The notes beneath the pieces are model-generated. The model was not told where the DNA came from and ran no database searches. It saw only the letters and a program-made list of their open reading frames with translations. The position numbers were made by a program, and so were the translations under genes. 64,000 nt of DNA from Bilabrum cf. latius (lineage: Eukaryota): assembly GCA_965178125.1 (NCBI GenBank), contig OZ237773.1, forward strand, positions 248,001 through 312,000, given 5' to 3'. Of the stretch, positions 3,001 to 52,168 are shown in pieces (the first letter of the stretch is position 1; each line of letters starts with the position of its first letter).

Positions 3001-6000
3001 TGGGCGTGGACCAGCTCAGGTTCGGTGCCTGCGTGTCTCGCGGGGGGGGGCTGTCGGCACACGCGCCCCCTTCGGTCATGACGGCGCTGGCCGCCGGGGG
3101 CGCGGATGCGGTTGCAACCTCGGGTCGGCTCGCGGATGCCTTGGGCTTTGCTCTCCCCGGCCGCACGAGCTGGCAGGGGGTGCCCCCGTCCGTGCAGGCG
3201 ATCACGAGGGGACTGGCAGCTGCGGGGGATGGAGGTGCCATGCTGCTGCTGCAGGCCGCCGCCGCGTCCGCCGGTTTGGCCGCGCCGATCGGGGGTGGTC
3301 AAAGCGGGGAAGGAGTCACCTAGAGCGGACTGGCGGGCCGCGTGCCCGGCGGCATAGACACGACCGGGGGCAGTTCCACCGCGACCGAATCGACCGTCGG
3401 AGCGGCGGGCTTGCTCACTCCAGGCAACGCGGGTTTGAAACCCACTGTCCAGGAAAAGCTGAGGGCGAAAAAGAAAAAATTCCTGGCCGCGCTCGGTCTC
3501 GGTCCCGCGGCGCCCAGGGGAGGCGCGAAGTTCCGCTCCTCCGGCACCGGCGACTCTTCCAGCGGTGACACGCCTATCCGCCGGGATGCATCCGGATCCC
3601 AGGATCGAGTCCAGGCACTGCTAGCGATGGCCGAGCAGCGAGCAGGGGCAGCGATGGCTGCGGCTGGCCGGGCCCTGGAGGCAGCGGCAGCCGCAGACGC
3701 CTCCAGTGGTATGGCCTCATGGGCCTCATAGGCGGCGGGGGAGCGGGGGCGGCAGCTGGAGCTCGTGTGTTCCTCGGGATCCAGGTGGGGCGGGGGTCGG
3801 CGAGGGTGGGAAGTGGCGGCCGCGGCGGCGGCTGCTGCAGAGGCGCGTGACGGGACGGGATCCGGAGCCGAAACCACGGGGGCAGCGACAGGTGCATGTG
3901 CGGGGCTGCTCGCAGCGAACAGCCAGGGCATCGGTTCCGCAAGCAGCGGCAAGACCGGCAGCGCGGCGCCGGGCCCCTCCCAGGACGGGGAAGCCCTCCT
4001 GTTCCTCCCGCACTCGTCACCCATGCACGAGCTGCTGGGATCCACCACAAGCCCGCTCGAACTCCTCAGTTCCGGCTTCTTCGTGCCGGCTTCCCCCGGC
4101 GCCCGCCTGCGAGCCCTCGTGTGGACCCTGGGGATCGACCTGAGGTGCGACCCCCAGGGACTGCAAGACCTCAGCGCATACCCTCCCGAGACCGAGGACT
4201 ACCTCATGGACGCCGGCACAGCGCTGGGGATCGCACCTCCCCAAGCCGCCCTCTTCGCTGCGGGAGTGCTGGGCAGGGGCGCTGCAGCGGTTGCCGCTGG
4301 GTCCCAGGACTCCGAAGAGGGCGGTCACCCGGGTTCGATCCCGGGAGGAGGCAAGCGGGGGAGCGATTCCTCGGGGCAGGGGATCCAGCGGGGCGACAGC
4401 GGCGCGCCGGTGCGGCATATCTCTCGTGTGACGGGGGGAGAGAACACCGACGAGGAGCGTTCGCCCAGCCAGGCATCCCCAGGTGCGCTGCACGAGTGGT
4501 CCGCTTCGGCCTGCAGCACGCTGCTTCCCGTCCTGGTGGGGCTTTCGGAGGAATGGGCCAAGGTCAGGGCACAGCTGGCCGACGGTGGTGTGACGAGTGC
4601 AGGTGGCAGCAGCAGCAGCGTCGGCGGCAAGGGCGATTTCTTCGCCTCTGAGAAGAACACCGGCAGGCTCGTGGTTGTTCTCCGGGCGGTGCCTGTCACC
4701 ATCGGGTGGAAACCGCCTGCCCAGCAAGAGGAGGAGAGCGGGGGTGGCAGCAGCGGCGGCGGAACACCTGGGGCGGAACCATCCGGCGCCATCCCGTCCA
4801 CCTCGGACTCGCCCAGGCAGGTCTCCCTGCCCGGCGTGGCCACCCGACTCGAGGTGCTGGGCGGCAGCCGGGTCATGGCCGCCCTGCAGTCCCTCAAGCT
4901 GAGCCGGGAATCCGCGGAGAACCTCGGCGAAGGTTCTTCGGGAATCGGCCGCAAGGCCTCAATGGACGCGCAGGGCGGGCCGGCGAGGCAGCCTGCCTGG
5001 TCCCCGGAGATAAGGGGCCCTGCCTTGATGGGTGCGCAGTCGGGCGTGGCGGCGCTGTCGCTGACCGCAGCGGAGGAAAGCGCGAAGGGCATCGTCGCGG
5101 CGGCGGCGGCGTCCACCCTTGGATTGCGCGGCGCCGCGGCGGTTCCGCACGGGGTGCGGCTGGCGGGCGTTGTTCTCCAGGGGGAGGCGAAGAGCCTCAC
5201 GAGCGGGGGCAGAGGTGCGGGGCCCGGCCGGCCCATGCGTCCGCAGTGCAGCGTGCAGCTGCCCGATGGCGCCGCGGGACACGTCTTTGTGGTCATGCCC
5301 GCTCCCGCGATGCTCGGCCTGTCGGAGGGAACAAATGGGGGAGGCGGAGGGCAGTATCAGGGCGGTGGTGCGGAGGGGGGTCCCGAGGACGGGGACAAGG
5401 TGCAGCGCATGGCGGCGCAGGGGGAGGCCGAGGCATCTGCGGCGGGGGCAATTTCGGGAGCCCCGCCCGACGGGCCTCTCAGGTCGGGTGCCCTACCGGG
5501 TATCGTACCCCGGAGCGCCATTCCGCTCGCTTGGGGGGACGACTCTCTCGTGGCTCCGTGGTCCCGATCGGCCGGCACCGCGCTGGCTGCGGCGGAGGCC
5601 ATGGGCCTGCAGGAGGGCGGATTTCTGGCTCCGGATAGCCCGGCGGTGGCCGCTGCCATGGCCGCCTACCAGGCCGCGGTGGCGCAACATCTTGCGACCA
5701 CTACCGGAGCAGGTGCTTCGGCGGCGGCAGCGAGCTAGGGCATGTCGGAGGGGTGGATCCTGTAGGCCGCTCGATCGGCGGCGCTGCAGCTGCTTCCCTC
5801 TGGCTGGAGAGGTGCTGGGGCTGGCAGGCTGCTGCCCAGCGGACTCATGGTTCCGCTGCAAATGCGCGGCGCCTCTTCTCTGGCCCGGCACCTGGAGCCA
5901 CCCGCGGAGGCAGTGGCGCAAGCAGGAGCAGGTGGGTCCAAGCCTGCGCCGTACCCCGGGACGGATGCTGCCGCACCTGCCGCAGCCGCACCAGCGACCT

Positions 6001-6932
6001 CGGGGGTAGAGAAGGAGAAGCAATCGGAAGGCATCCAGGTCGAAGGCGCAGGGGCAGCGGCGGGCGAGGGCGCGGCGGGCGCGGGCCGCCGCCGAGTGAA
6101 GAAGCGCACCAAGGCAGAGAAGGAGGCGGCCAAGGCAGCGAGGCTGGCGGCGGAGCAGGGCCAGAAGCAGGGCCAAGATGGTCAGGGCCAGGGCACGGGT
6201 GCCGTTGGAGCTTCTGGCGAGATGCCAGTCTCGGCCCCCGCTCCTGCGCCTTCACCCGCACCCGCACCCAGCAAGGCCAAATCGGGGGCCGCTGGCAAAG
6301 ACAAGGCAAGAGACAAGGCAAAGGATAAGGATAAGGACAAGGGCAAGTCGAAGGGCCGCAACAGGGGCCCAGGGGAGCTGGAGGGGTTGCGTGTACTTTT
6401 GGTGGACGACGAGCGCGCCAACGTGCAGGTCGGCAGGCGCATGCTGAAGCGGATGGGCTGCACGGTCACCACTGCAGACGACGGCGCCGTGGCCCTCGAG
6501 ATGTTCGAGCAGATCCGCGAAGGCCGCAGAGGCGCGTTCGATGTGGTCCTTCTGGACATCTGGATGCCCACGGATGGCAGGCAGGTCTGCAGGCAGCTGC
6601 GGCAGGACGGCTTCACGCTGCCGATCCTCGCCATGACCACCATCAACAGCTAGTCCGACCTCATGGTCCTAAGGGAGGCGGGGTTCGACAAGGTGATCAG
6701 GAAACCGTTCGGAGCCGATGCGCTCCTGCAGGCCCTTAGGGATGTGACGAGGACGAGGACGGGGGCCGCTGGGGGAGGGGCAGAGAAGGCGGCGGCGACT
6801 CGTGCAGGTGCAGGTGCAGGTGCAGGCGCAGGGGCCGGTGCAGGGGCGGGTGCAGGGGCAGGGGCAGCCGGTGGCAAGAAACGGCGGGTAGTGAAGCGGA
6901 AGAAGAAAGAAAAGGACGAGGGGACGAGCTGA
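1..6932 (+). CDS. Large (>2,300 aa, 5'-truncated) Gly/Ala/Ser-rich protein with a C-terminal response-regulator receiver domain; 6 in-frame TAG
   Basis: ORFs 27, 465, 3342, 3765, 5847 and 6663 share one frame, separated only by TAG (462, 3321, 3729, 5736, 5763, 6651). The frame is open at the window start and ends at TGA 6930-6932. The receiver motifs LRVLLVDD...FDVVLLDIWMP...ILAMTTINS*SDLMVLREAGFDKVIRKPF span the TAG at 6651. Confidence 0.85.
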
Positions 6933-7114
6933 CCGTGCTTGCCACCAGCAGACGAGCTGACCGTGCTTGCCAGGTCCTGGGTCCTTGATCCGTACTACGG
7001 TGTGCCGCGGATGTGCACCTCTTCAAAAATTGCGCTGTGTGACGATTTTTCCACGCTTGATCTATCCACCGTCGCACACGAGATTACGGCAGGGGCCGTC
7101 TCCTGCAACCTGAT

Positions 7115-8185
7115 TCAATTTTCCGGGCCATTGCCGACGGCTGAATCCGCCAGACCTGTGGGTGGCACCTCTCCTTCCGGCGTGCTCGCCCCCGGGCCGC
7201 TCCCCACGTCGAGGACGGTTGCTGCCGTACTCGTCCCTGCCCCAGCCCCTGCCGCTGCACCCGTGGCAGCGCCTGATACTGCGGAATTACCAGCGGCAAG
7301 CTGGCCTCCCGCTTCCTCAGCAGACAGTCCCAGCGATATTAGAGCGGCGGCAAGCTCCTCCAAATGCTCGTCGGGAGGGAAACGGTACAAATCCACTGTC
7401 TTGCTCGCTCCAGCTGCGGTCGCAGCAGCCGCTTCTTCTGGTTCTAAACTGGTTTTCGCGGGAAATTCCGACTACATTCCAGTCGTAGAACTGGGTGCAG
7501 AAGACATTGCTGCAGCTGGGATACCATTGGATCCCGCCCCGACGGAGCTCTTGGACAATGGAGCAATTGCTTCGATTGTGCCGGCGTCGTTGACCTGGTC
7601 ATCATGCCCGTTGTGCGTCAGCAAAGCCCGTCGGATATTTGCAAAGTACTCAATATTTGGCCCGGAAGGACCCACGGACTTTGCGATAACCTTCGCAACC
7701 TCCAGAGCTTCCTTCCCACCGTCGTAATGTGGATTGTCGGCGGTGCCAACGAAGCAGACAGCCTTCCTATCAGTACCGTCTTCACAATGCACAATAACAT
7801 CGATCATATCGTATCCGGCCTTTTCTCGGTGCAGAAGCTTCTCCATAGAGGCCTCCACGTGGGAGCGGGGCACCCTGTAAACCACGCCTTGCGTGCGACA
7901 GGCAGGGTCGTCACGAACCATAGTTACGACAAACCCGGGTGACTCTTCAGTACCGCGATGATCTGGTGACCGCTGCCAAAACCGCCGGGTCCACCCGGTC
8001 ACATACCCCCAGTGGCGTTCGCTGAAGACCAAGTCAGGCTGCAGAATAGGACGGTGCGGTCCATTCACAGTGTAGGCCTATTTAAATCGCGACATTCTAT
8101 GAAAGGTAGACGCACAAATCCATCAATAATCTTCTCTTACTTTCCACACTAAACTCCCATAGCCAAACAGCCACAAGTCTGTCAT
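7115..8185 (-). CDS. chaC: ChaC-family glutathione-specific gamma-glutamylcyclotransferase; 2 exons (8185-8141, 8038-7115), 1 in-frame TAG
   Basis: Exon 1 MTDLWLFGYGSLVWK, a GTAAG...CTGCAG intron at 8140-8039, then PDLVFSERHWGYVTGWTRRFWQRSPDHRGTEESPGFVVT...LLHREKAGY...GPSGPNIEY, which are ChaC motifs. TAG at 7472-7474 is followed in frame by ORF 7115..7396, ending TGA. Confidence 0.9.
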
Positions 8186-8293
8186 CACGAAGTAAGTATG
8201 AGTGACGGGGCTGTGTATCCGGATAGGATTTGTGAAGACTTTTCGTATAATTTAACTTAATATGGATTAGCGATTCGGGCAGTTCGGGGTATA

Positions 8294-8366
8294 GGGCGTA
8301 TAGCTCAGTTGGTAGAGTGTCTGCTTCGCATGCAGATAGTCCAGGGTTCGATTCCCTGTGTGTCCA
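8294..8366 (+). tRNA. trnA-CGC: tRNA-Ala(CGC)
   Basis: 73-nt cloverleaf with anticodon arm TCTGC-TTCGCAT-GCAGA, T-arm CAGGG-TTCGATT-CCCTG and the G3:U70 Ala identity pair, followed by an oligo-T Pol III terminator. Confidence 0.95.
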
Positions 8367-8847
8367 AACTTTTTTGCCCTCTCATCATTATCCCCACTAG
8401 ACTATCTCAACCGCCTCAATGCAATAGTCGAGTCACATTTTGTTTGCCAGCCTTCGCTAAGGGTACTCGCTATTGCGAGCTGATTTGCAATCGATTGGTA
8501 AGGTCCCTAGGCTGTAAAGATTCGGCGAAATCCATCGCTGATCCACCATTTCTAGAAACATATCCTTCTCGTCACGATTTACTGATACCAATGCGGTCAA
8601 AGTGAGGATCTGAGAAACTGTGCTTCGGTACTTATAAGATCGACTGCGGTAGTTGTGTCTTTCGCTGTTCCTGTTCCTGTTCCTGTTCCAGATTCCGGAT
8701 CCATGTGGGTGGACAAAACCAAGTATGGCCAAGTCCCACCATTGAGCTTTCACAACTTTTCGCTGGACAGCAGGGTCACCTGTAGTCACCATAATCGATA
8801 AGAATGTTGGTTGAGTGAATATCACGAACTGTGCACTGCGTCTTCGC

Positions 8848-11800
8848 ATGAGGTGACCTCTTGCTTGCTTTTAGGGTCCGGCCTTCTATCCCTATTTCCA
8901 CAGGTCGCTCCACCCAGCCTCGACGCTGCATGGCGTAGCTACTAATATGCCAGCATTGTAGCAGGCGCTAGAAGCGATGCCAATCAGTGAACTACCACAA
9001 GTTATTGATGCCAAGGATCCTGTGAGGGTTGGTACTGTTGTATAGAGTCTACTTTTGACCAGAGGGGTTGCAAGTTAATCCAGGAATATTATGTGCAAAT
9101 TTGTTTGTGTATGTGCTACCCAAGTTGTATTTTCTGATCTGCAGCATGGCAAAACGGCTCTCTGCTTGGCTGCCGCCCAGGGCCAAGATAAATGCTGTGA
9201 ATCTCTCCTGCGGAGAGGCGCAAGCGCCTAGGTGCCCGATTCAGTGAGGAAAACATGTTTTTTCCCCCCAAGCTTTATGTCCAATGTACAGATGCGTCTT
9301 GTGAGGAGTGCGCCTGACTCATCTTATCTAGCAGGATGGTGCGCTGCCGCTTCACTATGCCGCTGCATACGGACACAAGAACGTGGTCGAGAAGATGCTG
9401 AGCCTCTCCAACGCAGAGATTAATGCCGTTGCGCCTGTTAGTCACTTTACTTGCTGCAAGCCACCTTGATGATGCAGGGTGGGTCTTAACTTGGGTGTTT
9501 CGTCGACATCAGCGCCAATGTCCATCTCCGATGCTTATTTGTATCCTTTTCTGACAAAGAGTAAAAACTGACCCAAATGAATTGACAGCTCCAGTACCAC
9601 TGCAGACAGGCGCGACGGCTTTACACTGGGCCTGCTATAGCGGACATCTAGAGGTGGCCATCTGGCTGACTGGAAGTGGTGCCAGCGTGTCTTCGCAAGA
9701 ATTCGTGAGTGGCTAGTGGAGTCATTCACGAGTAAACCATATGCGATCTGTTTCCTACTCTGGAATAGTCCGGGGGTCACTCGCACTTCTAGCCTCTAAA
9801 GTCGCCCGACTATCCTCAATCTCGCAGGAGACTTTGAACACTCCGCTGCACTCTGCTGCTTACAATGGGCACGCAGCTGTTATCAAGCATCTATGTAGTT
9901 GCTCTGGTATCAATGTTGATGCGCCCGATGCGGTAAGATCGATTCATTTTGCGCCCCTATCCAGATTCTTTGTGTTTGGACATGCGGCGAATGCACCCGT
10001 GCGCGACACCTTACCGGCATGAAGGCACTGATAGCCAACAGACAACTGCGGGAAGATAGTTGCGTATTTCCTAATTGCCTTCTGAGATGGGATTGAGCGA
10101 GCACAGCTCTAGAGGTGCAGCTTCCGCGCGCAATAGTATGGATACTATCTGGGCAATCTCGCTGTCAACTGCGATGATTATCCAAAAGTGTAGCACAGCA
10201 CGCCTTCATCCGTTAATTTCGTTACCACAGGACGGGCAAACACCCCTTCACCATGCGTGTACCAACGGGCACGTCGCTGCCACCTTCCTGCTCCTGCAAG
10301 CCGGCGCCAGCCCTATGTCTAAAGAAAACAACGGCATGACCCCAGCCGAGGCGATCCCTGGGGATGCCTCCATGGCTGCGTTCAAGAACGCCATGACGGT
10401 GGGCGCCAGCTTCCCCCAGCTCTGCATGTACCTCATCATCAGGGACTGCGACGTGGACAACCTGACCAAGGGGGCCTACGAGATGTCCAGGGAACACCTC
10501 GACCGAGACCAGGTGGCGCTAGAGGCGTCCAAGCTTCTGGGCAACGAGGGCGTGCTTCATGACAAGAGCCGACGCACTGCCGCCTTGGAAGCCTTCTAGT
10601 ACGTGCAGCAGGGGACCAGGCGGGGTGCGAAAGGAGCAGAGGAAGAGGCTGAACGCCTTCGAAGGATGCTGCAGCAGGCACGAAACGACGCCGACAAGGC
10701 AAGAGACGAGGCCGAGCGCGCCAAAACCGAAGTGCGGGCAGCCGAGCACGAGCGGCGCGTGCTGCTGCAGGCCGGTCTCAAGCTGGCAGCGAGCGCGTTG
10801 CTGACTCGAGACGCCGAGAACGCGAAAGAGATGGCACGGGTGGGCACGGACCCAGCCGAGGTCATCAACGCGCGGGCCAAACGGGTCCTCCTCGCGGTCA
10901 GGGTGCGAGGCGCGCCCATGCGTCGCATCCGCGGCAACATGATGTCTCACCACCCGAGACTAAGGAGACTGTCACCGAGGCCCGGGGAGCCGTATGGAAT
11001 GCTCGACATCAGGTCCGTAGCAGAGCCCAACATCATCGAGCAGATCGCAGTACCGTCCGGCTGTTCCGGTTCTGGGTCTATCCTAAATCTCGTGAACGGC
11101 GGTGTTTCATCAAAGAGGCACGGTGGGGATCCGGCACACCTTGCGTTTCACCAGCACACGCGAGCCAGGCCCATCTACTGGGATGGGTCGGCGTCTGCTG
11201 CCACTGGCTCGACGGCAGCGCCGGAAGGCCAAGGGAGCAACGGCCTGGTGCTAGCCGTTGAGTCGCAGCCTATGGGTGACGTGTATGGATCTGATAGACC
11301 CGCCCGATCTGTGTGGCCGTTCGGCTGGCAGGGCGCACTAAAGGGAGCGTATCCCGGGGCTGATTCCCAGCACAACGATGCGATCTATCCGTTCGTGATC
11401 GGTGACAGACGCGATTCCCGAGGAAACGTGGTCCTGCACGGACACCCAAACGTGCTGACCGTGCACCACGCCTGGCTGGGCTCCACACAGCTGATGCTGC
11501 CTTGGCTCAACGAAATCATCAACAGCAGATGCACCACCTGGACTCTGATGGAGCGGTTCCCCACCACGCTGGAGGGGGCAGTGACTGCTTCGCTCACGAT
11601 AGGCAACCGGCAGGGATTCACGGGGAGACAGGCGGCGCTGTGGCTGCTGCAGGTGCTGCAGGGGCTGGAGCACGCCCGGTCCCGGGGGGTCGTGCACCGT
11701 GACGTAACGTCCGACAACGTCTTCATGTCAGCGGACGGACGGGCCGTGCTGGGCGACTGGGGGGAAGCCAGCTTCCTGTACAAGGGTGGATTGCGGCGCT

Positions 11801-14067
11801 CCGTGGACGAGATGGTCGCGAGCTGGAACAGGGAGTATGTATCCGTTGAGCAGAGAGAGGACGCAGCGGACGGGGTTCCTAGACCCGGAGCCACTGCAGA
11901 GCATGTCGCGGCGAAGGTCGCTTCCATGGAGAGCGCGATGGAGGCAAGCTCGCACCACGGTGCGCTCGGCGCTGCGGGACCGGCGGGCAAAATGGGATCT
12001 GGTGAGGGTCCGATTGACGTGCACGCTACATTCATTGTGCCTGACGATGATATGGACGGCAGCACTGGTGCTGATCCTATTCTATTCGTGGGCTGCGGGC
12101 GCGGCGCAAAGCCCGCCACGCTTGACGATGACGCTTCGTGGAAATTCGGCGGCATGGGAGCGGTAGCACCAGAGGTCAGAGTCGCGGTAGACAAGGGGGT
12201 GCATGCAGTCAGGGATCCGAGGGGCGAGCCGGTGAGGTACCTGGGCCAGCTGTTTGCGTGCTCGGATGCGTGGGCCGCGGGCCGCATGATCTGGCAGATG
12301 TTCGCGAAACAAGCCCAGGCCAGGGGAGCCAGTGTGGGTCAGCTGCCAAGCGCTGCTGATCGCGGATTCTACTCTGACGCAGAGATCCCGCGGCTGCCTG
12401 ATGCATCGTCGTGCCCGCCCGCACTGGAGGCGATCCTTCGTGGGCTGCTGCAGTCGGAGCCTAGCCGGCGCATGCCCCAGCATGAGGCCATCCGCGCGTT
12501 GCTGTGCGCGCTCTACGGCCCTGAGAACGTCGGGGCATTCCCAGGTGTGCCTGCAAGCGGTGCTGCAGCATCTGATGCCACCCATCCCGCCGCTGCAAGT
12601 GCCATGCAGTCCTGGGTGCAGGACCAGAGGGCTTACCTGAACGGAGCTGACGCGATCCAAGGTAGCCTGCCCCCCAGCATGGTGGCGGTGGAGGCTGACC
12701 TCCTCGAGCAAGCCCAGAGATTCGTGCCACCCGCGCCGCCTGCACTGCACGGTAGTGCACCCGTCGGTCCAGCCAGCGGTGCTGGAGGACCGGATGCTCC
12801 GCAGGCCGGCAAGCACTCTGAGGTCGAGGCAGCGGCCCGCAATGCAGTGATCCATGCTGCGGGCCAGGCTGTCATTCCCACCAGGCGCGAGCGGGGCGAT
12901 GTGCAAGGGGAGCAGATCGCGACGGACAGAGACAACAAGAAGCTGGCCAACCGGATGTCCATGGGCTGCGTGGGCGAACACGTGCCATTCGGTCCCTCCA
13001 TCGGCGCGAGCGGCCTCGCAGGTCCTGGCGAGGCCAACAAAGCCATCGCCAGCGCAGGCCCTGATTCAGTGCTGAGGCCTCCCTCGGCTGGGACCAGGTC
13101 GCTTTACGGCTGGGAGGAAGAGGGCATCCTGGGCAGAGTGAAGCCGCTCATGAAGAAAGAGGCGACCATGTGGGACAGGCAGGTGAGGAGGCAGTTCCTG
13201 GGGTCGCACCACGTCGAGGAGCAGGTCGCGAGGGGGGTCATGGCGGTGAGAGAGGCGTTCAGATGCTTTGGGGTGGGAGGTGCGGGGGCGTGGCAGGGCG
13301 CTAGGGACCTCCCTTGGGTCCCATCCGAGAGTTTCCCGACGTATCATAGTGTGACGAGTGGTTAGGCTGTGGCGAGTGGATCACCGGGTGCTCCGGTCTA
13401 CCAACCAGCAAGCCAACCGCTCTCTCCTTCCAACGGCAGATCTAGTAGCTGGCAAGGACAGTCCGCTCCTGCACCGAGCCATGCTGGTGGCAGCTCGTCC
13501 CACATGCATTCTAGTCCGACGCAGGGGCAGGGCATGGCCCACATGCATTCTAGTCCGACGCAGGGGCAGGGCATGGCCCAACGACCAGGCGAGCATACAG
13601 CAGCAGCCCATGCGGTGGCATCACCAACCGCACCACAGCCGGGTATTGTGCTTCCCTAGATGTAGATTTAGCAACCACAGGCATCGGGTCACCATGGTGA
13701 TCCCGGGCATTCGACGTAGGCCCCGCTCCGATTCGGACTTCCTCCAGGCACATTTACTGCCGCTGCACCTCTGGGCGGCGACAGGCAGACTGGATGCACT
13801 GGCTCTTCCGGAGATCAGCGTCCTGAGCTGGGGGCGCCTGAACGTGGTGCAGTGCACGCAGGTGCAGAAGGGGCGGGGGCAGTTGACTCCCACGTACCAG
13901 CGCCGGCGGGTCACCACGACGCATTTAACGGGCATACTGGCCATGGATGGTGCGCAGGAGAGGGCACGGCCGGTCCCGATCGGGGCAAGGGCGAGGCGCT
14001 GATCCGGCAGTCCGCCGAGCTAGAAGCGAGGGAGGCCGCGAGCGGTGGTGCGAGCAACGGAGTGTAA
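8848..14067 (+). CDS. Ankyrin-repeat + coiled-coil + PINK1-like Ser/Thr kinase; multi-exon 5' end (start codon uncertain), several in-frame TAG
   Basis: Ankyrin exons 9145-9243 (HGKTALCLAAAQG), 9335-9436 (DGALPLHYAAAYGH) and 9828-9932 (NTPLHSAAYNGH) with GT-AG phase-0 introns. The last exon 10231-14067 is one frame broken only by TAG (10597, 13363, 13657, 13663, 13669 and one further site). Kinase motifs HPNV, HRDVTSDN, DWG, APE and DAWAAG. Ends TAA 14065-14067, followed by AT-rich sequence. Confidence 0.85.
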
Positions 14068-14280
14068 CTCTGCGAGAGCAATAGCCTAAATTAGTGGCGC
14101 AATAATTTAATAATACAGATTCCTAGGTTCAAAATACGACGATCAGTCAGCGCCTAGTGAATTCAATCGATCTAGGCAGTGGTACTCTCTGGATCTAGTC
14201 ACCCGCAATCGTCCAACTTTACCCCACCCACTACTACTATCATTTGATATGGAATGGCAATTGGAACTACTGCTGGTGTA

Positions 14281-14353
14281 GGGCGTATAGCTCAGTTGGT
14301 AGAGTGTCTGCTTCGCATGCAGATAGTCCAGGGTTCGATTCCCTGTGTGTCCA
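14281..14353 (+). tRNA. trnA-CGC: tRNA-Ala(CGC), identical to the copy at 8294
   Basis: Same 73-nt cloverleaf; oligo-T terminator follows. Confidence 0.95.
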
Positions 14354-14439
14354 AACTTTTTTTGCTCCAATCAAGACTCGTCATGGATCGAGAACCACCC
14401 TTCGCGCTCAGAAAAACACCGACTTGCCCACTTTATAGA

Positions 14440-16431
14440 ATGAGTGGCATGCGCATATTTTACATTTTTTTAGTGTCATGCCTCGGAGGTGTGCTCGCTG
14501 GCGCCACGGCCAGCAACCTGGCGCAAGACTAGCGACCTATATTCCACCCCATGCCAGAGGCAGACTTCACGAACGATATTGATGGTCCCTTCTTTTGGAA
14601 CGGGATGTACCATTTGTTATTTGCGCACCATGTGAACCAGACCTGCTTTTGCAACGTAGACGGTGGCTAGAACCGTTGGGCGCACCTTGTTTCGAAAGAC
14701 CTGGCTCGTTGGGAGAGGTTAGAAGCAGCGCTGCTCGCAAACAAGAGCACGAACGACCCATCAATTCCCTGCAAGGCGACACCCTACGACGGAGTTGCCG
14801 TGATGACTGGTAGCACGACCGTTCTAAGCGACGGCCCCCTCATCCTGTACAGCTCGAACCCGGTCAATGGCATCAACTATGCGAGACCGGCAAACCTATC
14901 CGATCCTCTCCTTCGATACTGGATCAAGGACCCCTCCAATCCCATCTTTTCGAACCAGGGTGCTGGGCTTGCCCCCATGATGCGGGATCCCTCCACGGCG
15001 TGGTACCACGCGGGGAGCAAGCGCTGGATGCTCGTCCTCGCGGGCCAGCCCTCCGCCAAGGGCAGCATGGAGCCAGAGCTGTGGTCCACGGACTAGCCAC
15101 CCACTGCTGATATAGAACGCTCCGGCCCCGGCACCTCATCCGGGTGGAAATACGAGGGAATTTACTGGCGAGCAGCAGGTGGTGCCCAGCTGCCACCCTA
15201 CAAGCCCATGCTCGAGTGCCCCGACACGTGGCCCGTGTTGCCGCAAGACCGCCTAGAAGCGCCGTAGAAAGCTTCTTCTTCCTCTTCCAGTACCCCCAGG
15301 ACAAAGACCCCTCTGTGGGCATTCCGCTGGAGCGGGTCCACAGGTGCAGAGCCCGTCGTTCTGGGCCAGTAGGACCCATCCACGGGCCATTTCGTGCCTC
15401 TCCCTGCCCCTACCAACGGCAGCGCGCCCCGTACCCCGTACCCGCCGCTGCACCTCCTGCAGCAGCAGTCCACCCAAGTTGGTGTGGCGGCCAACGCAGA
15501 CAACGACACGTACTGGCCACAAAGACTCGGGCAGGGCACAACTGGCGGTGTGTATGCCTCCAAGAGCATGCGGGACCCGGTCCACCAGCAGCAGGTGTGG
15601 TGGGGCTGGATCCACGAGGGCTGGATGCAGGGCTCCCACTGCGTCAACCGCTCCGTCTGCGGGACGCACACGGTCCCCCGCGCTCTGGTTTACGACCCGG
15701 CAACCGATCGCCTCAAGGCATACCCCGTGCCCCAGCTCGATCTGCTGCGGCTGGAGCAGCTGGTGGGTCAGGACGATCTGCCGATCCACGCGGGGGTGGT
15801 CGCGGATTGGACCAAGCAGGTCGCTGGTGGCCCGAGCAGTGCCAGGGGCGGCCTGGAGCTTGACGTGGAGGTGGTGCTGAGGCCCAGTTCTGGCGCGATT
15901 GGGGCTGTCGGTGGCACGGCGTTCGGTGCGGTGAACTTTACGTTGCGGGTGCGTGCGACCGTTGGGCCGGATGGTCGGGTGGCGTCGGACCCGGCTCAGT
16001 TCACGGACGTGACCGTGCAGTTTGTTCCTTCTACGAGAAACGAGGCAGCGGCCTCGGGAGTGGCTGGGTGGGTCACCATGCGAATGACGGTCACCGCTCC
16101 CCCTACTGCGTCGATCGAGTCTGTAGGCAGAAAGTGGAGCACCCAGGCGATCGCAGCCCCGGCCGCGGTGATGGTTGAAGATCTGGCCCCGGGCGGAAGC
16201 GGGATTGCCCTCCGTGTGCTTGTGGACCACAGCGTGGTGGAGGCATTCGTGATGGGAGGCAGGGCGCAGCTGGTGGGCAGGACGTATCCTGCGGATGAGG
16301 CAGTCGGCGTGGCTTTGCTCGGAGGAGAAGGAGAAGGAGAAGGCGGAGAAAGGGGTGGAGGTGGGACGATGGTTAAGGGAGTGGCCTGGGCCATGGGTGG
16401 GATGATGCTGCCAGCAGGGAGTCTCCAGTGA
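14440..16431 (+). CDS. Secreted glycoside hydrolase family 32 (beta-fructofuranosidase/invertase-like), 663 aa, 5 in-frame TAG
   Basis: Signal-peptide-like N-terminus, then RPIFHP, FTNDIDGP (NDPNG variant), WAHLVSKDLARW, MRDP, LECPD, YASKS, WWGW and C-terminal LRVLVDHSVVEAF. All lie in one frame across TAGs at 14530, 14668, 15094, 15265 and 15370; ends TGA. Confidence 0.9.
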
Positions 16432-16862
16432 AGGGCTCTCTAGTGAGCTCTCTAGTGAGCTGAGGGAACATGCAGTGGCCGCGATGTTGGCTGCAGGGAG
16501 TCTCCAGTGAGGGGCTCTCTAGTGAGCTCTCTAGTGAGCTAAGGGAACATGCAGTGGCCGCGATGTTGGCTGCAGGGAGTTTCCAGTGAGGGGCTCTCTA
16601 GTGAGCTGAGGGAACATGCAGTGGCCGCGATGTTGGCTGCAGGGAGTCTCCAGTGAAGGGCTCTCTAGTGAGCTCTCTAGTGAGCTGAGGGAACATGCAG
16701 TGGCCGCGATGTTGGCTGCAGGGAGTTTCCAGTGAAGGGCTCTCTAGTGAGCTGAGGGAACATGCAGTGGCCGCGATGTTGGCTGCAGGGAGTATCCAGT
16801 GAAGGGCTCTCTAGTGAGCTCTCTAGTGAGCTGAGGGAACATGCAGTGGCCGCGATGTTGGC
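16414..16862. repeat. Minisatellite, ~6 units of 79 or 67 bp, overlapping the GH32 stop codon
   Basis: Unit starts at 16414, 16493, 16572, 16639, 16718 and 16785. The two unit lengths differ by one 12-bp CTCTCTAGTGAG block. Confidence 0.95.
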
Positions 16863-16951
16863 ATGTGAGCCAGGTCGGGGATCTGTGACAGGGTCTAGCG
16901 TGTGTACCAGTCATTGCGGTTGATTTCACTTAGAGCAGATTCGATCCAATG

Positions 16952-18522
16952 TCACTTCCCGCCTCCTGCGGCTTGCCTCCCTGCCAGCTGCTGCAGCAGG
17001 GCCTGCAGCTCGGCAGCCCCTCCCCTGCCCGTCCCCCCTCGCCCTCCCCTGCCCAGCGGCACGGCATCGATCTGCTTCAGTGCTGGCAGCATCCTCGGCA
17101 GCTTTGTTCTGTACTCCTTGTCCCTGGCAATCGGGTTGTGCTCCAGATAGATCGTGTCCAGGGTGCCCCGCACTGGGGCAAGTGCCTCGATCTGGGCATA
17201 GTCGGCGACGGCATTCGAGCCCAGCCACAAGTCCTCCAGCACGGGGCACTCCTCCAAGCCGCTCAGATCGGCAATCCCGTTGTTGGTGAGGTCCAGCGTG
17301 CTGAGCTTGGGCTTGCGGCCGATCCCGCGCATGCTGGAGATGCCCTGGTGGCCAAGGTACAGCTCCTCAAGCGCCTCGCATTTCTCGAGCCCCTCGATCT
17401 TGGTCAGCCGGTTGCTCTGGAGGTCCAGCCTCCTCAGCTTGGGGAGTGTCTCCAGCCCCTGGATGGTTTCTATCTTGTTCTTGCCCATCCACAGCTCCTC
17501 CAGCTCGGAAAGTGCCTCCAGCCCTTCGATCTTCTTGATCTTGTTCATGCCCAGGTCGAGCTTTCTCAGCTGCGTGAGGGTCTCGATCCCGCGCATGGAG
17601 CGCAGCTTGTTGCTGCAAGCAAACGAGCAAGGCATAAGGGCGTGACTCTGGTTGCGTATGGAACAATTGTGTGGAGCATGTGAGGATGCCATGAGTGGCA
17701 CTGGGGGTCCCTCAGTCGCCTCGGTGCGTGCAAGCAGGGCCGGGTGCTCACTTGGCGAGGTAGAGCGTCTTGAGGTTGACGAGCGCCTCGATGCCTTCGA
17801 TCGTCTTGATCTTGTTGTAGGACATGTCCAGGGTCACCAGGGACACCAGCGGGGCGATGCCTTCCAGTCGGCGAATCTGCGCGGGGGTTGGTGCGAGCGC
17901 GGGCAGGTGCCGTGCAGAGGTGGCTCGCTTCCGATTTCTCCCCTGGGAGGGTTGCGCTGCGAATTGCGGCGACTATTACTGCAGCGGCTGCACTTGGTAC
18001 AGTCCTTACTCTATTTTCGTATAATTCCAGGTGCGTAAGCTTGGTAAGATGTTCCATCCCTTGCATTCTATCGATCAGGTTGGAACGCAAGCACAGGTAG
18101 TCGATGCCGGGGACCGCCTCGAGACCTTCGATGACGGAAACCTTCTTGCCCATTGTTCCCACATAATCCAATTTACCGTGCTTGGCCGCGTCTTCCAAGG
18201 AAACTACGTCGCCTGGGCGGACCACTTCGGGTGCTGGCTCATCGTCTGCTCCGGACCCTGCGTCCGCCCCGCCGGCTGCTCCGCCAGCTTCTTCTTTTCC
18301 GGACGACGCAGATGCAGCCACTGCGCAATCATCTCCGGATGCTGCAGGCGCCGTAGCGGCCGTTCCTGCAGCTCCAGCCCTGGACGCTGAAACCACCTCT
18401 ACCTTGCCTTGCGCAGCGAGCTTCTCCATCGCCGCCGGGTCGCTCAGATCAATCACGCTCATGCCCGCGAAGCGCTTCTCACCACCTGCACCCTCACCGG
18501 GATCACTCCCAGCAGCCGCCAT
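16952..18522 (-). CDS. sds22: SDS22/PPP1R7-like leucine-rich-repeat protein (PP1 regulatory subunit 7); exons 18522-18010, 17876-17752, 17612-16952
   Basis: SDS22-type LRRs (LCLRSNLI, LELYENRI, LDMSYNKI, LYLANNKL, LDLGMNKI, LWMGKNKI, LDLQSNRL) and an LRR cap (TIYLEHNPI...YRTKL...LPALKQIDA). GTAAGG..CAG and GTGAGC..CAG introns restore the repeats; ends TGA. Confidence 0.88.
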
Positions 18523-19182
18523 TCGCCACTTGTCGCGAGAAAGTGCGAGCAAATCGGCGAAGGTCAGTGGTGGGGGTGTGATGACTATTCTGCAGGGCCA
18601 TTGGCAATGCACACGTGCTTGCAGCTTACTCGCTTGGGGTGGTAACAAGGTTTAAGAAGTGTAGACAGGCCAGCCGCAAGCGAGTACATCTGATCCAGCG
18701 GTGGGCATGCCGTGCTGGGCCATCATCGCCCCCTCCCTTCCCATCGACAGAATTGACAACCACAAGTTGAAGGCCGGACAGGGGCGGATGGGCCCAGCCG
18801 TAGGGGCACCTGGCTCCTCTGTACAGACTCGACAGGCCATCATGTACACATTGTGCGGCTGCATGCGACTACCTTCTCCTCAATGTTCAGCGACCGCCAA
18901 ATATGAAGATGATTGCGCGTAAATAAGCCAAAGTTGCGATCAATATATTTTCAGACCATATTTAGATCTGCTTACGAGGCCGTGGGACTCGATTGGGTCT
19001 TGGGTTTTGGGGATATAATTCGCGAGGGTACCAGCCTTTGTTTGTAGTCGAAGCCTCTTCGACAGGTTTAGGTGCAGCGCTGCGTTCACAAAGGACCCTT
19101 TTGCGTCTACGCAAACATTATTTCTTGCCCACCAGCGATTTTAAAATCACAAACATACCTGCTCAAGTTGCATTGATTTGCA

Positions 19183-20916
19183 ATGAGCGAGCGCGACCGC
19201 ATGCCATCGTTCCGAAGCGGTCTGCTGGTTGCCGTTGCAGGCGCCGCGCTGTCGCTGCATCGCACCCATGCTGCCTGTGACTTTGTTGGGATCCAAACCA
19301 GATTATTACAACCAGGCCAATGGACCTCGATCGAATGCGGGGAGGGCACGGGGCTGCCGCAGCCAGGCGACGGCGCCAACCCGAAGGCCTGGGCCACAGC
19401 TCGAGGCAACTGCGAGCACTGCAGCGCAGTGACGCTGCACCTATCCCACGGGCAATCATGCGACCTCGATCCTTACGATAGCGAGCACGAGTCGCTGTGG
19501 AGCGCCCCCCTGCTGCCACCGTAGCTCCCACCCGCCCGTGAGCGAGCACCCCTGGGAGCAGGTGCCTCGCGCATATTGCCAGAGGCGAGCATTCACGGGG
19601 TTGCGTGTCCTGTTGGGACGGGGGAGGGCGGGAGGACCCGGTGCTGCCTCCAAATAAAAAACGGAATGGACCTGGGGAGCAGTAGCGTGCACTTTCCGCG
19701 GGCGTTGATCGGAACAGAGGACGAGAACGCCGCGGCGTTCCGTGGCTGCTCGTACGGCGTGGGTGTGACGATTACGGGGTCAAGCGACTTTCCGCGTGCG
19801 GTGCTGCACTGCACGGCAGTGCAGTCCCAGCGGAAGCTGAGCGGAACCATCGTCGGTCTGCGCGGCGCCGCCAGCATCCGCGTCGGTCTTGGCTCGTCAC
19901 AGTGCGATGCTTTCGATTCCGGGTCCTCTACCCCGGACGGCGTGTCGGGCAGCCGTCTGCGCGTGGCAGCCGGCCAGGAGATCGCGCTGGACCAGGCCCT
20001 TGGTGTGACCCAGGGGAGGTCAGCCGCCTGCCTTGTGGTGGACTGCCTGGCGCTTGGGGGTGTGACGAGTGGGGGTGCGGATGCCGGAGGGGGGTCGTCG
20101 TCTTCGTCGTCGTCATGGGCCAACGGTGGAGGTGGTCCGATCGGCAACGAATGTTCGGTGAGGTTCACGGGAGCGGTCCGCTCCATCCTCGCCACCCCAC
20201 TGCCGAGCGCCACGCCTGCGGCGCAATCCCAGACGCAGCTGTCCGCAGGGAACCCCACCTGGGGCATATCGATGCGGGGGTACTCAGACGGCGCCAGGGA
20301 ACAGTGGGTGGCCAGATCGGACGCTGGGACGCGGGTGCTGGTGACGTGCCTGAGCATAGGCACGGAGCCTGGGTTCGACATGGTGCGGGTGTTTGACGGC
20401 GAGTCGCCCAGGCAAAGTACTCGCCTGGCGGAATGGAGCGGGGACAGCTGCGGAACCGGCGCCGCGGCGTCGGTTGTAACCGGGAGAAACGCCGTCTCGG
20501 TCACCTTCGAGGCGGACGGGGAGGTGTCTGGGAGCTTCAGCGGATTTTCGCTCCGAGTCGAGCGGCTGGCCGCCCCCAGCCCCAGCCCGCGGCCCAGCGC
20601 ATCGCCCGCCGCGCAGCTGGAGACTCTGGGCCAAGAGTTGCTTGTGGGCGGTTCCGCTGGCGCGGCGCCGGGCACCGCGGCGAGTCCCGGGTCGGGGATG
20701 GCGAGCTGGCAGCGGTTCCCGGTGCTGGCCGCGCTGCCCAGCGGGGGCGACGTGGATATATCCGTTGAGCTGCAGGGGCTGGAGGGGGACCCGAGACGGA
20801 CCTGGCTTGACCTGGTCGCCGGGGAGGAGGAAGAAGGTGGGCAAAGTGGCCTCGTCTGGAGGCGGTACGCCGGCGAGTCCGCCGCTGTCAGTGAGTCTGC
20901 TGCTGCAGTGCCTCTG

Positions 20917-20948
<32 letters not shown>

Positions 20949-22295
20949 AGAAGAAGAAGAAGCAGCGGCAACGGTTGCTGCCCCGTTCGCTCCGGGGCGG
21001 GCCGTGGTGTCGGGAGGCACGGCTTCCCTTGTTCTCTGGCAGGAGGCCGGGGCGGCGCAGAACGCAAGCTTCTTGGCGCGGGTCACGTCGGTTGCAACCG
21101 GCAGCGTGGGGAGTGTGACGAGTGCGCGACAGGCGGGGCTGTTCCTGGCGCCGGAGCGCGGCGCGAACGTGACGGCTGCACCTGCCCGGGCGGGTAGCAA
21201 CGACTGGGTGTCTGTTGGGCTGGGTGGTGTGACGAGTGCCAGCCGGCTTCGGCTGCTGTCTGCTCGCGCGTGCTGCCTGGTTGCGGATGCCTCCCTGCGA
21301 GTGTAGGTCGTTGCTACGGCGGTTACCGGTGCACCCGTGTTGAGTGCCCAGGGAGACTGCTCCGCAGGTCAGGGAACATGCGTGGGTCTATCTCCGGACT
21401 CGAATGCGGCGCTGGCGGTGGACGGTCCCGCCGTGGAGGTCGGGGTGAGGACGCAGCGCATCCCGAGGGGAAGTGGGGTGCAGCGCATGGTGGTGCAGAT
21501 GGAGGCATCGGTGCTAGACCTGCCACCACCCGTCACTTTGCCCAACCTGCCCCCCTCGCGACTCGCGTGCCAGTGCCTCTGCGACTTCAGGGTTGCTGGA
21601 TACCTCGACTTGGGCAGCAGCAGCGCGGCCTCCTGCGGAACCTGCACACGGACGGCGTGCAGCCAGGAGTTCGGTTCCGCAGGAGGATAGTGCGCGGCGC
21701 CTGCCGAGGTGGAGGCGCGGTGCGTCGCCGGTGCCCTTGGTCTGCCGTCCCCCGCGCCCTCGCCCGCCCCGGTAGGTGACGCGTGGGCTGGCGCGAGGGG
21801 GACGTGGGCGGTGACTGGGACTGCTGTGACGAGTGGGTCTAAATGTGAGATTGCCGGACTGCGCGTGTCTGGTGGGATGCAGGGAACAGCCTCTGTGCGT
21901 GCCACGGTGCTGGGCGTGGACGCTGCGACGTGCGGGAAATCGCTGGGGTCTGGCCACGGGGGCGCCGCGCAATTGGGAGCGGTTCCGCTCGCCGGAACCA
22001 CCGCCAATGCAACGGCACGGTCCTACTTGTTCCGACGGGCGGGCTTGGGCGCAAGCGGCGATGTAATGCAGCTGTCGCTGCAGGCTCCATCCGACGAGGA
22101 CCCTGGTGCTGCCTCCCCAACCGTGGGCAGCCTGTCGGTACTGAACCCCGGAGCTGCAGCCTCCAGCGAGACCGCGACGGTTATCTCATACTCGGTGGCG
22201 AAGGTCGCTGGTGCCCGGTCCTCAGGTGATGTGACGAGTGGGTGGGTGGGGCGGTACGAACCCTCGGCTGAGCCGGGGTCGTGCCGGGGAGACGG
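19183..22295 (+). CDS. CUB-domain secreted/membrane protein, copy truncated by the assembly gap
   Basis: Matches 24913-28025 at an offset of 5,730 bp and runs into the N-gap. Confidence 0.65.
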
Positions 22296-22495
22296 NNNNN
22301 NNNNNNNNNNNNNNNNNNNNNNNNNNNNNNNNNNNNNNNNNNNNNNNNNNNNNNNNNNNNNNNNNNNNNNNNNNNNNNNNNNNNNNNNNNNNNNNNNNNN
22401 NNNNNNNNNNNNNNNNNNNNNNNNNNNNNNNNNNNNNNNNNNNNNNNNNNNNNNNNNNNNNNNNNNNNNNNNNNNNNNNNNNNNNNNNNNNNNNN
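22296..22495. other. Scaffold gap (200 N)
   Basis: Run of N bases. Confidence 1.
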
Positions 22496-25400: not shown

Positions 25401-26646
25401 CCTGGGGAGCAGTAGCGTGCACTTTCCGCGGGCGTTGATCGGAACAGAGGACGAGAACGCCGCGGCGTTCCGTGGCTGCTCGTACGGCGTGGGTGTGACG
25501 ATTACGGGGTCAAGCGACTTTCCGCGTGCGGTGCTGCACTGCACGGCAGTGCAGTCCCAGCGGAAGCTGAGCGGAACCATCGTCGGTCTGCGCGGCGCCG
25601 CCAGCATCCGCGTCGGTCTTGGCTCGTCACAGTGCGATGCTTTCGATTCCGGGTCCTCTACCCCGGACGGCGTGTCGGGCAGCCGTCTGCGCGTGGCAGC
25701 CGGCCAGGAGATCGCGCTGGACCAGGCCCTTGGTGTGACCCAGGGGAGGTCAGCCGCCTGCCTTGTGGTGGACTGCCTGGCGCTTGGGGGTGTGACGAGT
25801 GGGGGTGCGGATGCCGGAGGGGGGTCGTCGTCTTCGTCGTCGTCATGGGCCAACGGTGGAGGTGGTCCGATCGGCAACGAATGTTCGGTGAGGTTCACGG
25901 GAGCGGTCCGCTCCATCCTCGCCACCCCACTGCCGAGCGCCACGCCTGCGGCGCAATCCCAGACGCAGCTGTCCGCAGGGAACCCCACCTGGGGCATATC
26001 GATGCGGGGGTACTCAGACGGCGCCAGGGAACAGTGGGTGGCCAGATCGGACGCTGGGACGCGGGTGCTGGTGACGTGCCTGAGCATAGGCACGGAGCCT
26101 GGGTTCGACATGGTGCGGGTGTTTGACGGCGAGTCGCCCAGGCAAAGTACTCGCCTGGCGGAATGGAGCGGGGACAGCTGCGGAACCGGCGCCGCGGCGT
26201 CGGTTGTAACCGGGAGAAACGCCGTCTCGGTCACCTTCGAGGCGGACGGGGAGGTGTCTGGGAGCTTCAGCGGATTTTCGCTCCGAGTCGAGCGGCTGGC
26301 CGCCCCCAGCCCCAGCCCGCGGCCCAGCGCATCGCCCGCCGCGCAGCTGGAGACTCTGGGCCAAGAGTTGCTTGTGGGCGGTTCCGCTGGCGCGGCGCCG
26401 GGCACCGCGGCGAGTCCCGGGTCGGGGATGGCGAGCTGGCAGCGGTTCCCGGTGCTGGCCGCGCTGCCCAGCGGGGGCGACGTGGATATATCCGTTGAGC
26501 TGCAGGGGCTGGAGGGGGACCCGAGACGGACCTGGCTTGACCTGGTCGCCGGGGAGGAGGAAGAAGGTGGGCAAAGTGGCCTCGTCTGGAGGCGGTACGC
26601 CGGCGAGTCCGCCGCTGTCAGTGAGTCTGCTGCTGCAGTGCCTCTG

Positions 26647-26678
<32 letters not shown>

Positions 26679-28025: not shown

Positions 28026-28737
28026 GACGCCGGGCTGCTGCTGCCCGGGCGCCTGGTGGGTCAGCGAGGGTGTGACGAGTGAGGGCGACAGCGTTTATTT
28101 TTAGGTGGTGGAGTCGCCCCGCGTGAACGGCAGTAGTGACGAGTGCGGAGCTCATGCGGGCGGGCTGTTCGGTGCTGTGACGCCGGTGGATGCAGATGCA
28201 GAGGGCTCAGGCAGCGGCGCAGTGCAGATGGAAGCCGTGTGGAGGGGGCGAGGTGCCAAGGTGATCCGAGACCCGGGGCGGGCTGTGCTCGAGGCTGATC
28301 TGGGGGCGGGCTGCTTCTTCCGGCTTAGGCATGTGACGAGTGCGGAAGGGGGCGAGGTGGTGCCCACTGGTGGAGGCGGAGGGGACAGTTCTGGCGGTGG
28401 GAGTGGGCTGGGTGGGGCGGCCCTGGCAGCCGCTGTGGGGGTGCCTGTCCTGGTGCTGGCGGCATGCGCAGGGGCCGGGTGGTGGTGGTGGCAGGGGCTC
28501 TCCGGTGGCTCTTCCGGCGGGGAGGCGGGCCGTCTGAAATCGCTTCCAGGCGACCCCTCCCGGCGGGATCGGATCGGCCGGGCGAGCCAGGGGCGGGCGG
28601 ACCATGGGATGGGGATGGAGGGCCTGTACGGTGACGTGGGGGGGAATGGGGTAGGCAGGGACGTGGTGAATCCGCTGGGAAGTGTGACGAGTGGGAAGAA
28701 TCCGTACGATCAGGGCAGTGCCGGAATGCTTGCTTGA
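24913..28737 (+). CDS. Cys-rich type I membrane protein with a CUB domain, ~1,274 aa, 4 in-frame TAG
   Basis: Signal-like N-terminus (GLLVAVAGAALSLHRTHAAC); CUB motif TEPGFDMVRVFDG...WSG...VSVTFEADGEVSGSFSGFSL; poly-Glu (GAA)n; TM segment AALAAAVGVPVLVLAACAGAGWWWW. Five same-frame ORFs joined by TAG at 25252, 27034, 27418 and 28102; ends TGA. Confidence 0.82.
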
Positions 28738-50530: not shown

Positions 50531-50699
50531 ATGTAGCCCTTGCGGCATGGCTGGGTCTGGTCTGGGTCGGCTGATATATAGCTAGCCAGAAGGTGCACCG
50601 CATCCAGGATGCGCTTATGCAGGGGCCTACCTGCCCTGACCACCTGGTGCCGGCCTGAGGGTCCGGAGCCCGAGCCGTACAGTCCGCCGATCGTAGAAA

Positions 50700-51991: not shown

Positions 51992-52168
51992 GCCATGGTA
52001 GTAAACAGGTCAATTCTTTGTCATTTATGATGTGAGTCCACGCTAGCACGTGCACAACAGATGAACTTGCAGCTTGCCAGTGCCAAGTTGCCATTCATGA
52101 TTATGTCTTCATCTTCGCCAATTGCTTCTGTTGAAAATCGAATTCAATGGCAAAATCCCAACTTGCGT

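Follow-up and report, generated by a model that had tools for sequence, protein, structure and literature searches.

Our analysis of a 64-kb window from Bilabrum cf. latius (64,000 nucleotides; contig OZ237773.1 of assembly GCA_965178125.1, positions 248,001 to 312,000 of the forward strand) shows that UAG is a sense codon in its genes and that UAA is not decoded: the meanings of the two codons differ. The statistical support is overwhelming, with 123 TAG, no TAA and no TGA in frame across the 16,393 codons of 13 distinct genes. The best explanation, and in our judgement a probable one, is that UAG has become sense and that UAA is retained together with UGA as a stop. All counts given here refer to the 64-kb window and to one related metagenome contig, L001.

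The genes in the window are those of a eukaryotic nucleus. They comprise a response regulator with a receiver domain (2309 codons), ChaC, an ankyrin-kinase, a GH32 fructosidase, an SDS22-like leucine-rich repeat (LRR) protein, a giant membrane protein, an ankyrin family with five genes in tandem, and SYF1. We compared the contigs of sequencing runs X5, X6, X8 and X1 with window positions 1-20000. No run is recorded as RNA, and three were treated as RNA-like because their contigs carry spliced GT..AG and CT..AC joints; the contigs cannot reveal transcript 3' ends. Introns are few, short and spliceosomal, with five joints of 91-298 nt in the contigs of three runs and GTGAG or GTAAG ... CAG ends.

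Treating TAG as sense extends the longest open reading frame (ORF) from 953 codons with standard stops to 6143 codons with TGA and TAA only. Within the long ORFs, the frequency of TAG in frame (122) matches that off frame (138 and 105), whereas TAA is found 54 and 37 times off frame and never internally in frame (off-frame TAA:TAG ratios of 54:138 and 37:105). In-frame TAG occurs in 12 of the 13 genes, the exception being SDS22, so a standard-code annotation would truncate most of them. Alignments with homologues pass through TAG codons in SYF1 and GH32 of the window and in the GH79 gene of L001, and a contig of run X5 that covers GH32 has no letter differences across 14419-16443, all five TAG included.

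A simple objection is that UAA and UAG have both been reassigned to the same amino acid (a UAR code), with TAA made rare by G+C pressure and UGA left as the sole stop. The window has a G+C content of about 61%, third-position G+C reaches 0.61-0.81 in the long ORFs, TAA occurs only 202 times per strand, and all 12 clear termini are TGA, as this proposal would have it. However, codons ending in A are not rare in the 13 genes (CAA/CAG 172/463, GAA/GAG 220/597, AAA/AAG 98/298). If TAA were synonymous with TAG, the CAA/CAG ratio would predict 45.7 in-frame TAA, and none is present (P = 1.3e-17), which argues that TAA is not sense. The giant ORF makes the same case alone, with a CAA:CAG ratio of 69:171, 57 TAG and no TAA where 23 would be expected (P = 4e-9). 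A gene in L001 also ends at TAA at the natural C-terminus of its family, and we regard a shared UAR code as very improbable. The original prediction, made from the letters of this stretch, had reported no in-frame TAA in any intact coding sequence and common CAA codons in the giant gene; both statements hold on these counts.

These numbers could be distorted in two ways. Because TAA served as a stop in delimiting the ORFs, we checked TGA-only ORFs for coding stretches joined across TAA. The giant, response-regulator and SYF1 frames are unchanged, and the ankyrin extensions fall upstream of the point where homology among the paralogues starts. In addition, some TAG sites are shared by descent among the ankyrin paralogues and among the internal repeats of the giant gene, so that the TAG counts lack full independence. 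This point counts against our reading, but the conclusion on absent in-frame TAA withstands any reasonable discount for non-independence.

To locate the end of the coding signal in each gene, we used a codon log-odds model trained on the long genes of the window. In all 12 genes that end at TGA, the signal comes to within 0-16 codons of the stop. At each of these stops the G+C content, 0.60-0.70 over the final 300 nt, drops to 0.41-0.59 over the 150 nt that follow. On the plus strand, coding signal supports TGA termini for the response-regulator gene (6930-6932; six TAG), the GH32 gene (16429-16431; five TAG, with a family match as well) and a 1276-codon gene (28735-28737; four TAG). The ChaC gene ends on the minus strand at 7115-7117, also by coding signal. 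The SDS22-like LRR gene, which has three exons, ends on that strand at 16952-16954, as supported by CT..AC joints in three runs, the spliced translation and the Pfam LRR match. The giant ORF (29827-48255, minus strand; 6142 codons, 57 TAG) has coding signal up to its TGA at 29827-29829. The five ankyrin-family genes (51122-60683, plus strand; 40 TAG jointly) end with TGA at 51989, 54089, 57021, 59112 and 60681. With SYF1, described below, these make 12 clear genes, none of which ends at TAG. The original prediction counted 11 such termini, all TGA; the codon was right, but the number of distinct termini is 12.

SYF1 ends on the minus strand at 61225-61230, where direct reading gives ...GAA GAT TGA TAA and the family match extends to the end of the ORF; the tandem TGA-TAA described before is thus present. 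One further candidate for a TAA end, the fragment at 50132-50506 upstream of the five ankyrin genes, was rejected as a frameshifted copy of the ankyrin-family C-terminus. This leaves one candidate TAA terminus among the 13 genes, at the kinase.

A clearer case comes from relatives of this organism. A search of GH32 against 1.84 billion representative proteins returned close relatives as short fragments, P0147 (90% identical) and P0134 (77% identical); a separate homologue search with GH32 gave three matches only, none above 45% identity. The last residue of P0147 aligns adjacent to the window TAG at 14668, and P0134 ends exactly at a TAG (position 2924) of L001, the contig that encodes it. Both ends are as expected from a standard-code gene caller cutting at TAG, and we conclude that relatives share the TAG usage.

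L001, a single locus from a scan of metagenome contigs (3063 bp, G+C 0.56), carries the 5' part of a GH32 gene with 75% identity to that of the window; the codons at 2588 and 2924 in it are in-frame TAG. The GH32 gene is preceded by a PAN-GH79 heparanase-like gene, whose alignment with human heparanase continues unbroken across two in-frame TAG. The heparanase-like gene ends at a TAA (1956-1958), six codons past a Cys that aligns with the next-to-last residue of the human protein. A single gene, L001 GH79, thus shows TAG as a sense codon and a TAA stop where the family naturally has its C-terminus. An arrangement of N-terminal PAN domain, proline-rich linker and enzyme is present or approximated in both L001 enzymes and in the GH32 homologues P0130-P0133, P0136 and P0159.

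Together with the 123 TAG against 0 TAA where about 46 were expected, and with TAG ending 0 of 12 genes, the TAA terminus in L001 bears out the earlier suggestion that UAG and UAA are split here in the manner of a rare type of code. UAA as a terminator is the parsimonious reading, and it draws on the clean case in L001, the TGA-TAA tandem of SYF1 and a probable local case, the TAA at 14065-14067 on the plus strand, where the ankyrin-kinase gene is a candidate to terminate. Chance falls far short of explaining the lack of in-frame TAA, which cannot be said of a single TAA terminus.

The main exon of the kinase gene (10231-13329, plus strand, frame 0) contains one TAG and matches Pfam Pkinase and Ank, and its 5' edge is marked by a GT..AG joint (9931>10230) in the RNA-like contigs. 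Frame 0 meets no TAA or TGA before the TAA at 14065. Between the main exon and this TAA lies a stretch that looks non-coding in this frame (13330-13719; -10.2 bits over 130 codons) and holds five frame-0 TAG, at 13363, 13657, 13663, 13669 and 13717, three of them within five codons; it is possibly an intron or a strain-specific insert. The last 115 codons before the TAA (13720-14064) look coding again, lack TAG and score 13.1 bits at a G+C content of 0.68.

Several observations weigh against reading the TAA at 14065, and UAA in general, as a terminator. For none of the window genes is termination at TAA proven, and L001 belongs to a relative (75% identity in GH32) rather than to the genome of the window. 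The coding signal of the kinase ends at about 13308, 252 codons before the TAA, and homologues align in frame 0 only to ...WVPS at about 13326. A contig of runs X5 and X6 matches up to 13328 and resumes for only 27 letters at 13721-13747; read literally, this joint (13328>13721) leads into frame 2, which ends at TGA 13824. A frame-1 ORF (13355-14002) ends at TGA, with high third-position G+C over 13500-13900, and a TAG at 13363 sits 11 codons past the end of homology. With the joint at 13328>13721, more than one 3' structure of the transcript is conceivable, and the kinase TAA is a candidate terminator, not a proven one.

Homology gives little further guidance in this region. The kinase homologues are three metagenome proteins (P0123-P0125) at 33-45% identity, and a protein search with the C-terminal half of the kinase gave three matches only, none above 45% identity. 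Two of the three homologues (P0123 and P0125) continue in WW-like tails, which have no significant match to the kinase 3' region in any frame (the best, in frame 0, has E = 0.14), and a Pfam search of the kinase tail found no domain. No canonical GT..AG pair both fits the joint and preserves frame 0. Several canonical GT..AG introns from about 13330 to the terminal stretch would keep frame 0 (for example, 13331..13747), but none matches the contig joint and their donors are weak. We also dropped the idea that TGTAA, overlapping the kinase TAA, is a poly(A) signal of the green-alga type, as the motif is inconsistent downstream of the other genes.

The composition of the terminal stretch favors a coding end at the TAA. 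True coding windows score 21.4 bits on average (standard deviation 10.3), and 23% of them fall below the 13.1 bits of 13720-14064, a score that is attained by 0.3% of off-frame, 1.3% of open off-frame and 0.1% of intergenic windows. The G+C content falls from 0.68 before the TAA to 0.44 after it (14068-14217). The A+T-rich spacer that begins here leads to a tRNA-Ala(CGC) gene at 14281-14353, with G+C values of 0.44 and 0.41 over 14068-14353, and this layout of stop, spacer and tRNA-Ala is common to the kinase TAA and the SYF1 stop. We consider it reasonably probable that TAA 14065 is the true kinase stop after the non-coding-like stretch; a terminal exon probably follows an intron, or an insert specific to the strain, near 13330-13719. 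The original prediction ended the kinase frame at this TAA with a turn to AT-rich composition. The frame and the drop in G+C stand, but termination of the gene at this position is not confirmed, as the coding signal stops well upstream.

One alternative is that UAA is unassigned or avoided, that UGA is the only working stop, and that the TAA at 14065 lies in the 3' untranslated region of a gene ending elsewhere. It fits the count of proven TAA termini in the window (0 of 13 genes) and the loss of kinase coding signal some 250 codons before the TAA, and it would find its stop at TGA 14000 in frame 1 or TGA 13824 in frame 2. The latter frame scores -8.0 bits over its 34 codons. Against this alternative, the last 115 codons of frame 0 score as coding and the G+C content falls at the TAA as it does at the 12 TGA stops. 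The TAA terminus in L001 is a further difficulty. In addition, a release factor that keeps UGA and loses UAA while UAA stays undecoded is absent among the codes named in the relevant parts of PMC5304391 and PMC11687900. We judge an unassigned UAA to be unlikely.

The second alternative concerns UAG itself, which could be ambiguous, acting as sense inside genes and as a stop near some 3' ends, with the kinase ending at TAG 13363. Ambiguous stop/sense codes are known from Condylostoma, karyorelicts and Blastocrithidia (UAA). Kinase homology and codon signal do end 11 codons before this TAG, inside the 0-16 codon range of the other stops, and a second allele or strain form stops matching at 13328. 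Nevertheless, the coding signal ends at a TAG in none of the 12 other genes, and in the ankyrin gene ank3 a TAG sits two codons upstream of the TGA. Past the end of homology, frame 0 stays open for 245 codons, an event with a probability near 0.025 by simple arithmetic from TGA and TAA frequencies. The last 115 of these codons have a coding-like score, and RNA-like coverage persists downstream of 13363. An ambiguous UAG therefore seems highly unlikely to us, and TAG 13363 is the least likely of the three alternative kinase ends.

The kinase locus also varies between samples. Runs X5, X6 and X8 contain only a form of it (10465-13328) that is about 3% diverged; it differs at 42 places in 1367 nt and lacks 3 nt at 11107. 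In the interval 10535-10749, 213 nt are replaced by 171 other letters, a change that is also present in the DNA run X1. The diverged forms suggest two haplotypes or strains. Within the non-coding-like tail, a 39-nt unit occurs in two tandem copies at 13500-13577, and the X1 contigs break around it.

The amino acid encoded by UAG is less certain, and the window offers about five informative sites. In GH32, the TAG at 14530-14532 (plus strand) falls in a D-x-R-P motif, a column with Q 23, Y 14, L 14 and H 12 among 76 homologues; the site is Gln in P0147, in L001 and in seven more near homologues. One TAG in L001 GH79 aligns with the Gln in the R-Q motif of human heparanase. The motif R-Q-T-L-V-G-G is known from plant GH79 enzymes. 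A second GH32 codon (15370-15372, plus strand), in G-Q-x-D...F-V-P, is Y, W, F or M in homologues, and a TAG of L001 at a GP-[VIL]-I site aligns with a Leu in the window, a column with V 63, I 24, T 13, A 10, L 8 and Q 3 among 149 homologues. In SYF1, the TAG at 62938-62940 (minus strand; ORF residue 354) lies in a conserved helix where the 120 homologues have H 93, E 9, A 4, G 3 and Q, V, S and Y 2 each.

The conserved sites thus conflict, which is a point against a glutamine code: two fit Gln (GH32 D-Q-R-P and GH79 R-Q) and two a hydrophobic or aromatic residue. The original prediction assumed Gln, a meaning that this division does not establish. On these alignments we lean toward Gln for UAG. 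Both of the closest relatives (90% and 77% identical) and seven near homologues have this residue at D-x-R-P; it also occurs in the heparanase motif and is encoded by CAG opposite TAG in one paralogue pair.

That the split is real and UAG means something else, namely Tyr or Leu, less likely Ser, or a mixture from near-cognate tRNAs, is possible, although we find it the more doubtful reading. It would account for the aromatic site in GH32, the Leu opposite the L001 codon in a column where Q is rare, and the Tyr and Leu of the wider family at D-x-R-P. Tyr and Leu taken together look rather unlikely from the same alignments. The Ser version has less in its favor, with no Ser codon among 30 non-TAG paralogue partners, Ser in 1/76, 2/113, 5/149 and 2/120 homologues at the TAG columns, and a SYF1 tree that puts the organism outside the green plants. 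The paralogue partner codons and neighboring residues of TAG gave no clear signal and only disfavor Ser, Thr, Gly, Lys and Ala.

How would such a code work? A CUA anticodon pairs with UAG only and not with UAA, and a UUA anticodon would read both. We hypothesize that a dedicated tRNA with anticodon CUA reads UAG, and that the release factor eRF1 would have lost recognition of UAG while keeping that of UAA and UGA. Both UAA and UGA would be kept for termination, with UGA as the usual stop and UAA as a rare one because the genome is G+C-rich. The machinery predicted here is not seen in our data, a further caveat to this model: the only tRNAs in the window are three tRNA-Ala(CGC), L001 has none (neither a CUA nor a UUA anticodon was found), and no eRF1 gene is among the window genes.

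UAA and UAG almost always change meaning together. In the UAR = Gln codes of ciliates and hexamitids (table 6) and of Dasycladales, Cladophorales and Trentepohliales, TAA is used in frame as well as TAG. The window resembles these codes in the change of UAG from stop to sense and in UGA as a working stop, but differs in having 0 in-frame TAA against 123 TAG. It also differs from the codes of Condylostoma, karyorelicts and Blastocrithidia, as none of its 12 clear genes terminates at TAG and neither TGA nor TAA occurs in frame; the kinase TAG at 13363 is the one ambiguous case.

The code of the window instead probably joins a known, rare class of reassignments in which UAG alone becomes sense and UAA is kept as a stop. 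In the published cases considered here, UAA is in regular use as a stop. The fornicate Iotanema spirale reads UAG as Gln and stops at UAA and UGA, with UAA primary (Panek et al. 2017, PMC5304391). The window resembles it in that UAG alone is sense and UAA is probably kept as a terminator, which uncouples the two codons, and Gln is the likeliest meaning here too, but UGA ends 12 of its 13 genes and UAA at most one, at a G+C content of about 61%. The same text lists the rhizarian exLh (Sainouroidea), with UAG = Leu and UAA and UGA as stops (PMC5304391); this is again a UAG-only reassignment, and Leu is among our candidate meanings, but the two sites of the window and L001 best constrained by close relatives fit Gln over Leu.

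Further members of this class are found among ciliates and green algae. As reported in the sections concerned, the phyllopharyngean ciliates Hartmannula sinica and Trochilia petrani have UAG = Gln, a TARA lineage has UAG = Leu (McGowan et al. 2024, PMC11687900), and Protocruzia shows a UAG-only change (PMC11687900). These codes and that of the window share a UAG-only reassignment and no sign of context-dependent UAG, and UAA is retained as a stop in these ciliates and probably in the window. However, UAA is the stop in 86.9-98.3% of phyllopharyngean genes and UGA is least used (PMC11687900), whereas this usage is reversed in the window, where the gene structure is also not that of a ciliate and SYF1 falls beside unnamed sequences. 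In the ulvophyte Scotinosphaera sp., TAG is read as Ser and both TAA and TGA terminate genes (Li et al. 2021, PMC8271138), with TAA ending several of the genes checked there (PMC8271138). The window is similar in having TAG as sense, TGA as a stop and TAA as a probable one, but Ser is unsupported at its TAG sites, and a quick SYF1 tree, in which its branch is long, places it apart from the green-plant clade. The original prediction called split codes rare and gave Iotanema as an example, which is in print (PMC5304391), but the list was incomplete, as Scotinosphaera, the phyllopharyngean ciliates and Protocruzia also belong on it by the parts of the literature cited here (PMC11687900, PMC8271138).

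Our literature search found no description of a G+C-rich eukaryote with a UAG-only reassignment and UGA as the main stop. Tentatively, this may be an undescribed UAG-only reassignment in a deep, fast-evolving eukaryote lineage, the first in a G+C-rich genome with UGA as main stop, in which UAG could be Tyr, Leu or a near-cognate mixture of Gln and Tyr. Where UAA and UAG are uncoupled, the translation apparatus is evidently able to distinguish the two, a point of interest for the evolution of the code and for engineering UAG as a free codon in eukaryotes. A G+C-rich lineage with UGA as the main stop and UAA rare yet undecoded would be a natural test of codon capture, in which a stop is made rare by composition and then captured, and of whether eRF1 can drop UAG alone.

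The position of this organism among eukaryotes can be described in outline. It is not a ciliate by gene structure, with its spliceosomal introns of 91-298 nt and long, intron-poor genes. The best matches to SYF1 are 40-42% identical, none of them close. A quick SYF1 tree gives the query a long branch (2.3) that belongs to none of the well-supported groups of green plants, animals and ochrophytes. The green-plant clade (support 100) excludes it, and the nearest sequences are unnamed; the placement suggested by this tree is weak. The PAN-GH32 homologue P0130 falls in a cluster of a protein atlas that is mainly Euglenozoa, with a score of 0.87 that is under the 0.9 mark and makes this a lead only.

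Three tRNA-Ala(CGC) genes were found by ARAGORN, at 8294-8366 and 14281-14353 on the plus strand and at 61102-61176 on the minus strand. Two of the copies lie just 3' of gene ends, 49 nt past the SYF1 stop and 213 nt past the kinase TAA. At the copy at 8294, a contig from a DNA run breaks, and its loose end resembles sequence upstream of the copy at 61176. The depth of the X1 contigs also changes here, from about 12-15 up to the tRNA to about 31-52 beyond it (window 1-8321 versus 8368-20000). The two sides may differ in haplotype or in number of copies, or the repeated tRNA gene may be the point at which they were joined.

Window positions 16766-22295 and 22496-28025 (5530 nt each) are 100% identical with 0 mismatches and flank a gap of 200 N (22296-22495). 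The likeliest cause is a duplication made in scaffolding. It lets the SDS22-like gene appear twice, and likewise the 1276-codon gene, which has its exact copy at 19177-22295; the pair was counted once.

The giant gene as a whole spans 29827-48747 on the minus strand and encodes at least 6142 codons, with a further exon-like ORF at 48283-48747. It has N-terminal RCC1-like repeats, near-identical long internal repeats, a Cys-rich module and a multi-pass membrane C-terminus, and no Pfam family covers most of the protein. The ankyrin array (50132-60683, plus strand) has a common conserved C-terminal module (...HRDASLLGRCC.EGRPLELGKRLRLG...), and at one site of the array three copies have TAG where others have AGG, AGA or ACC.

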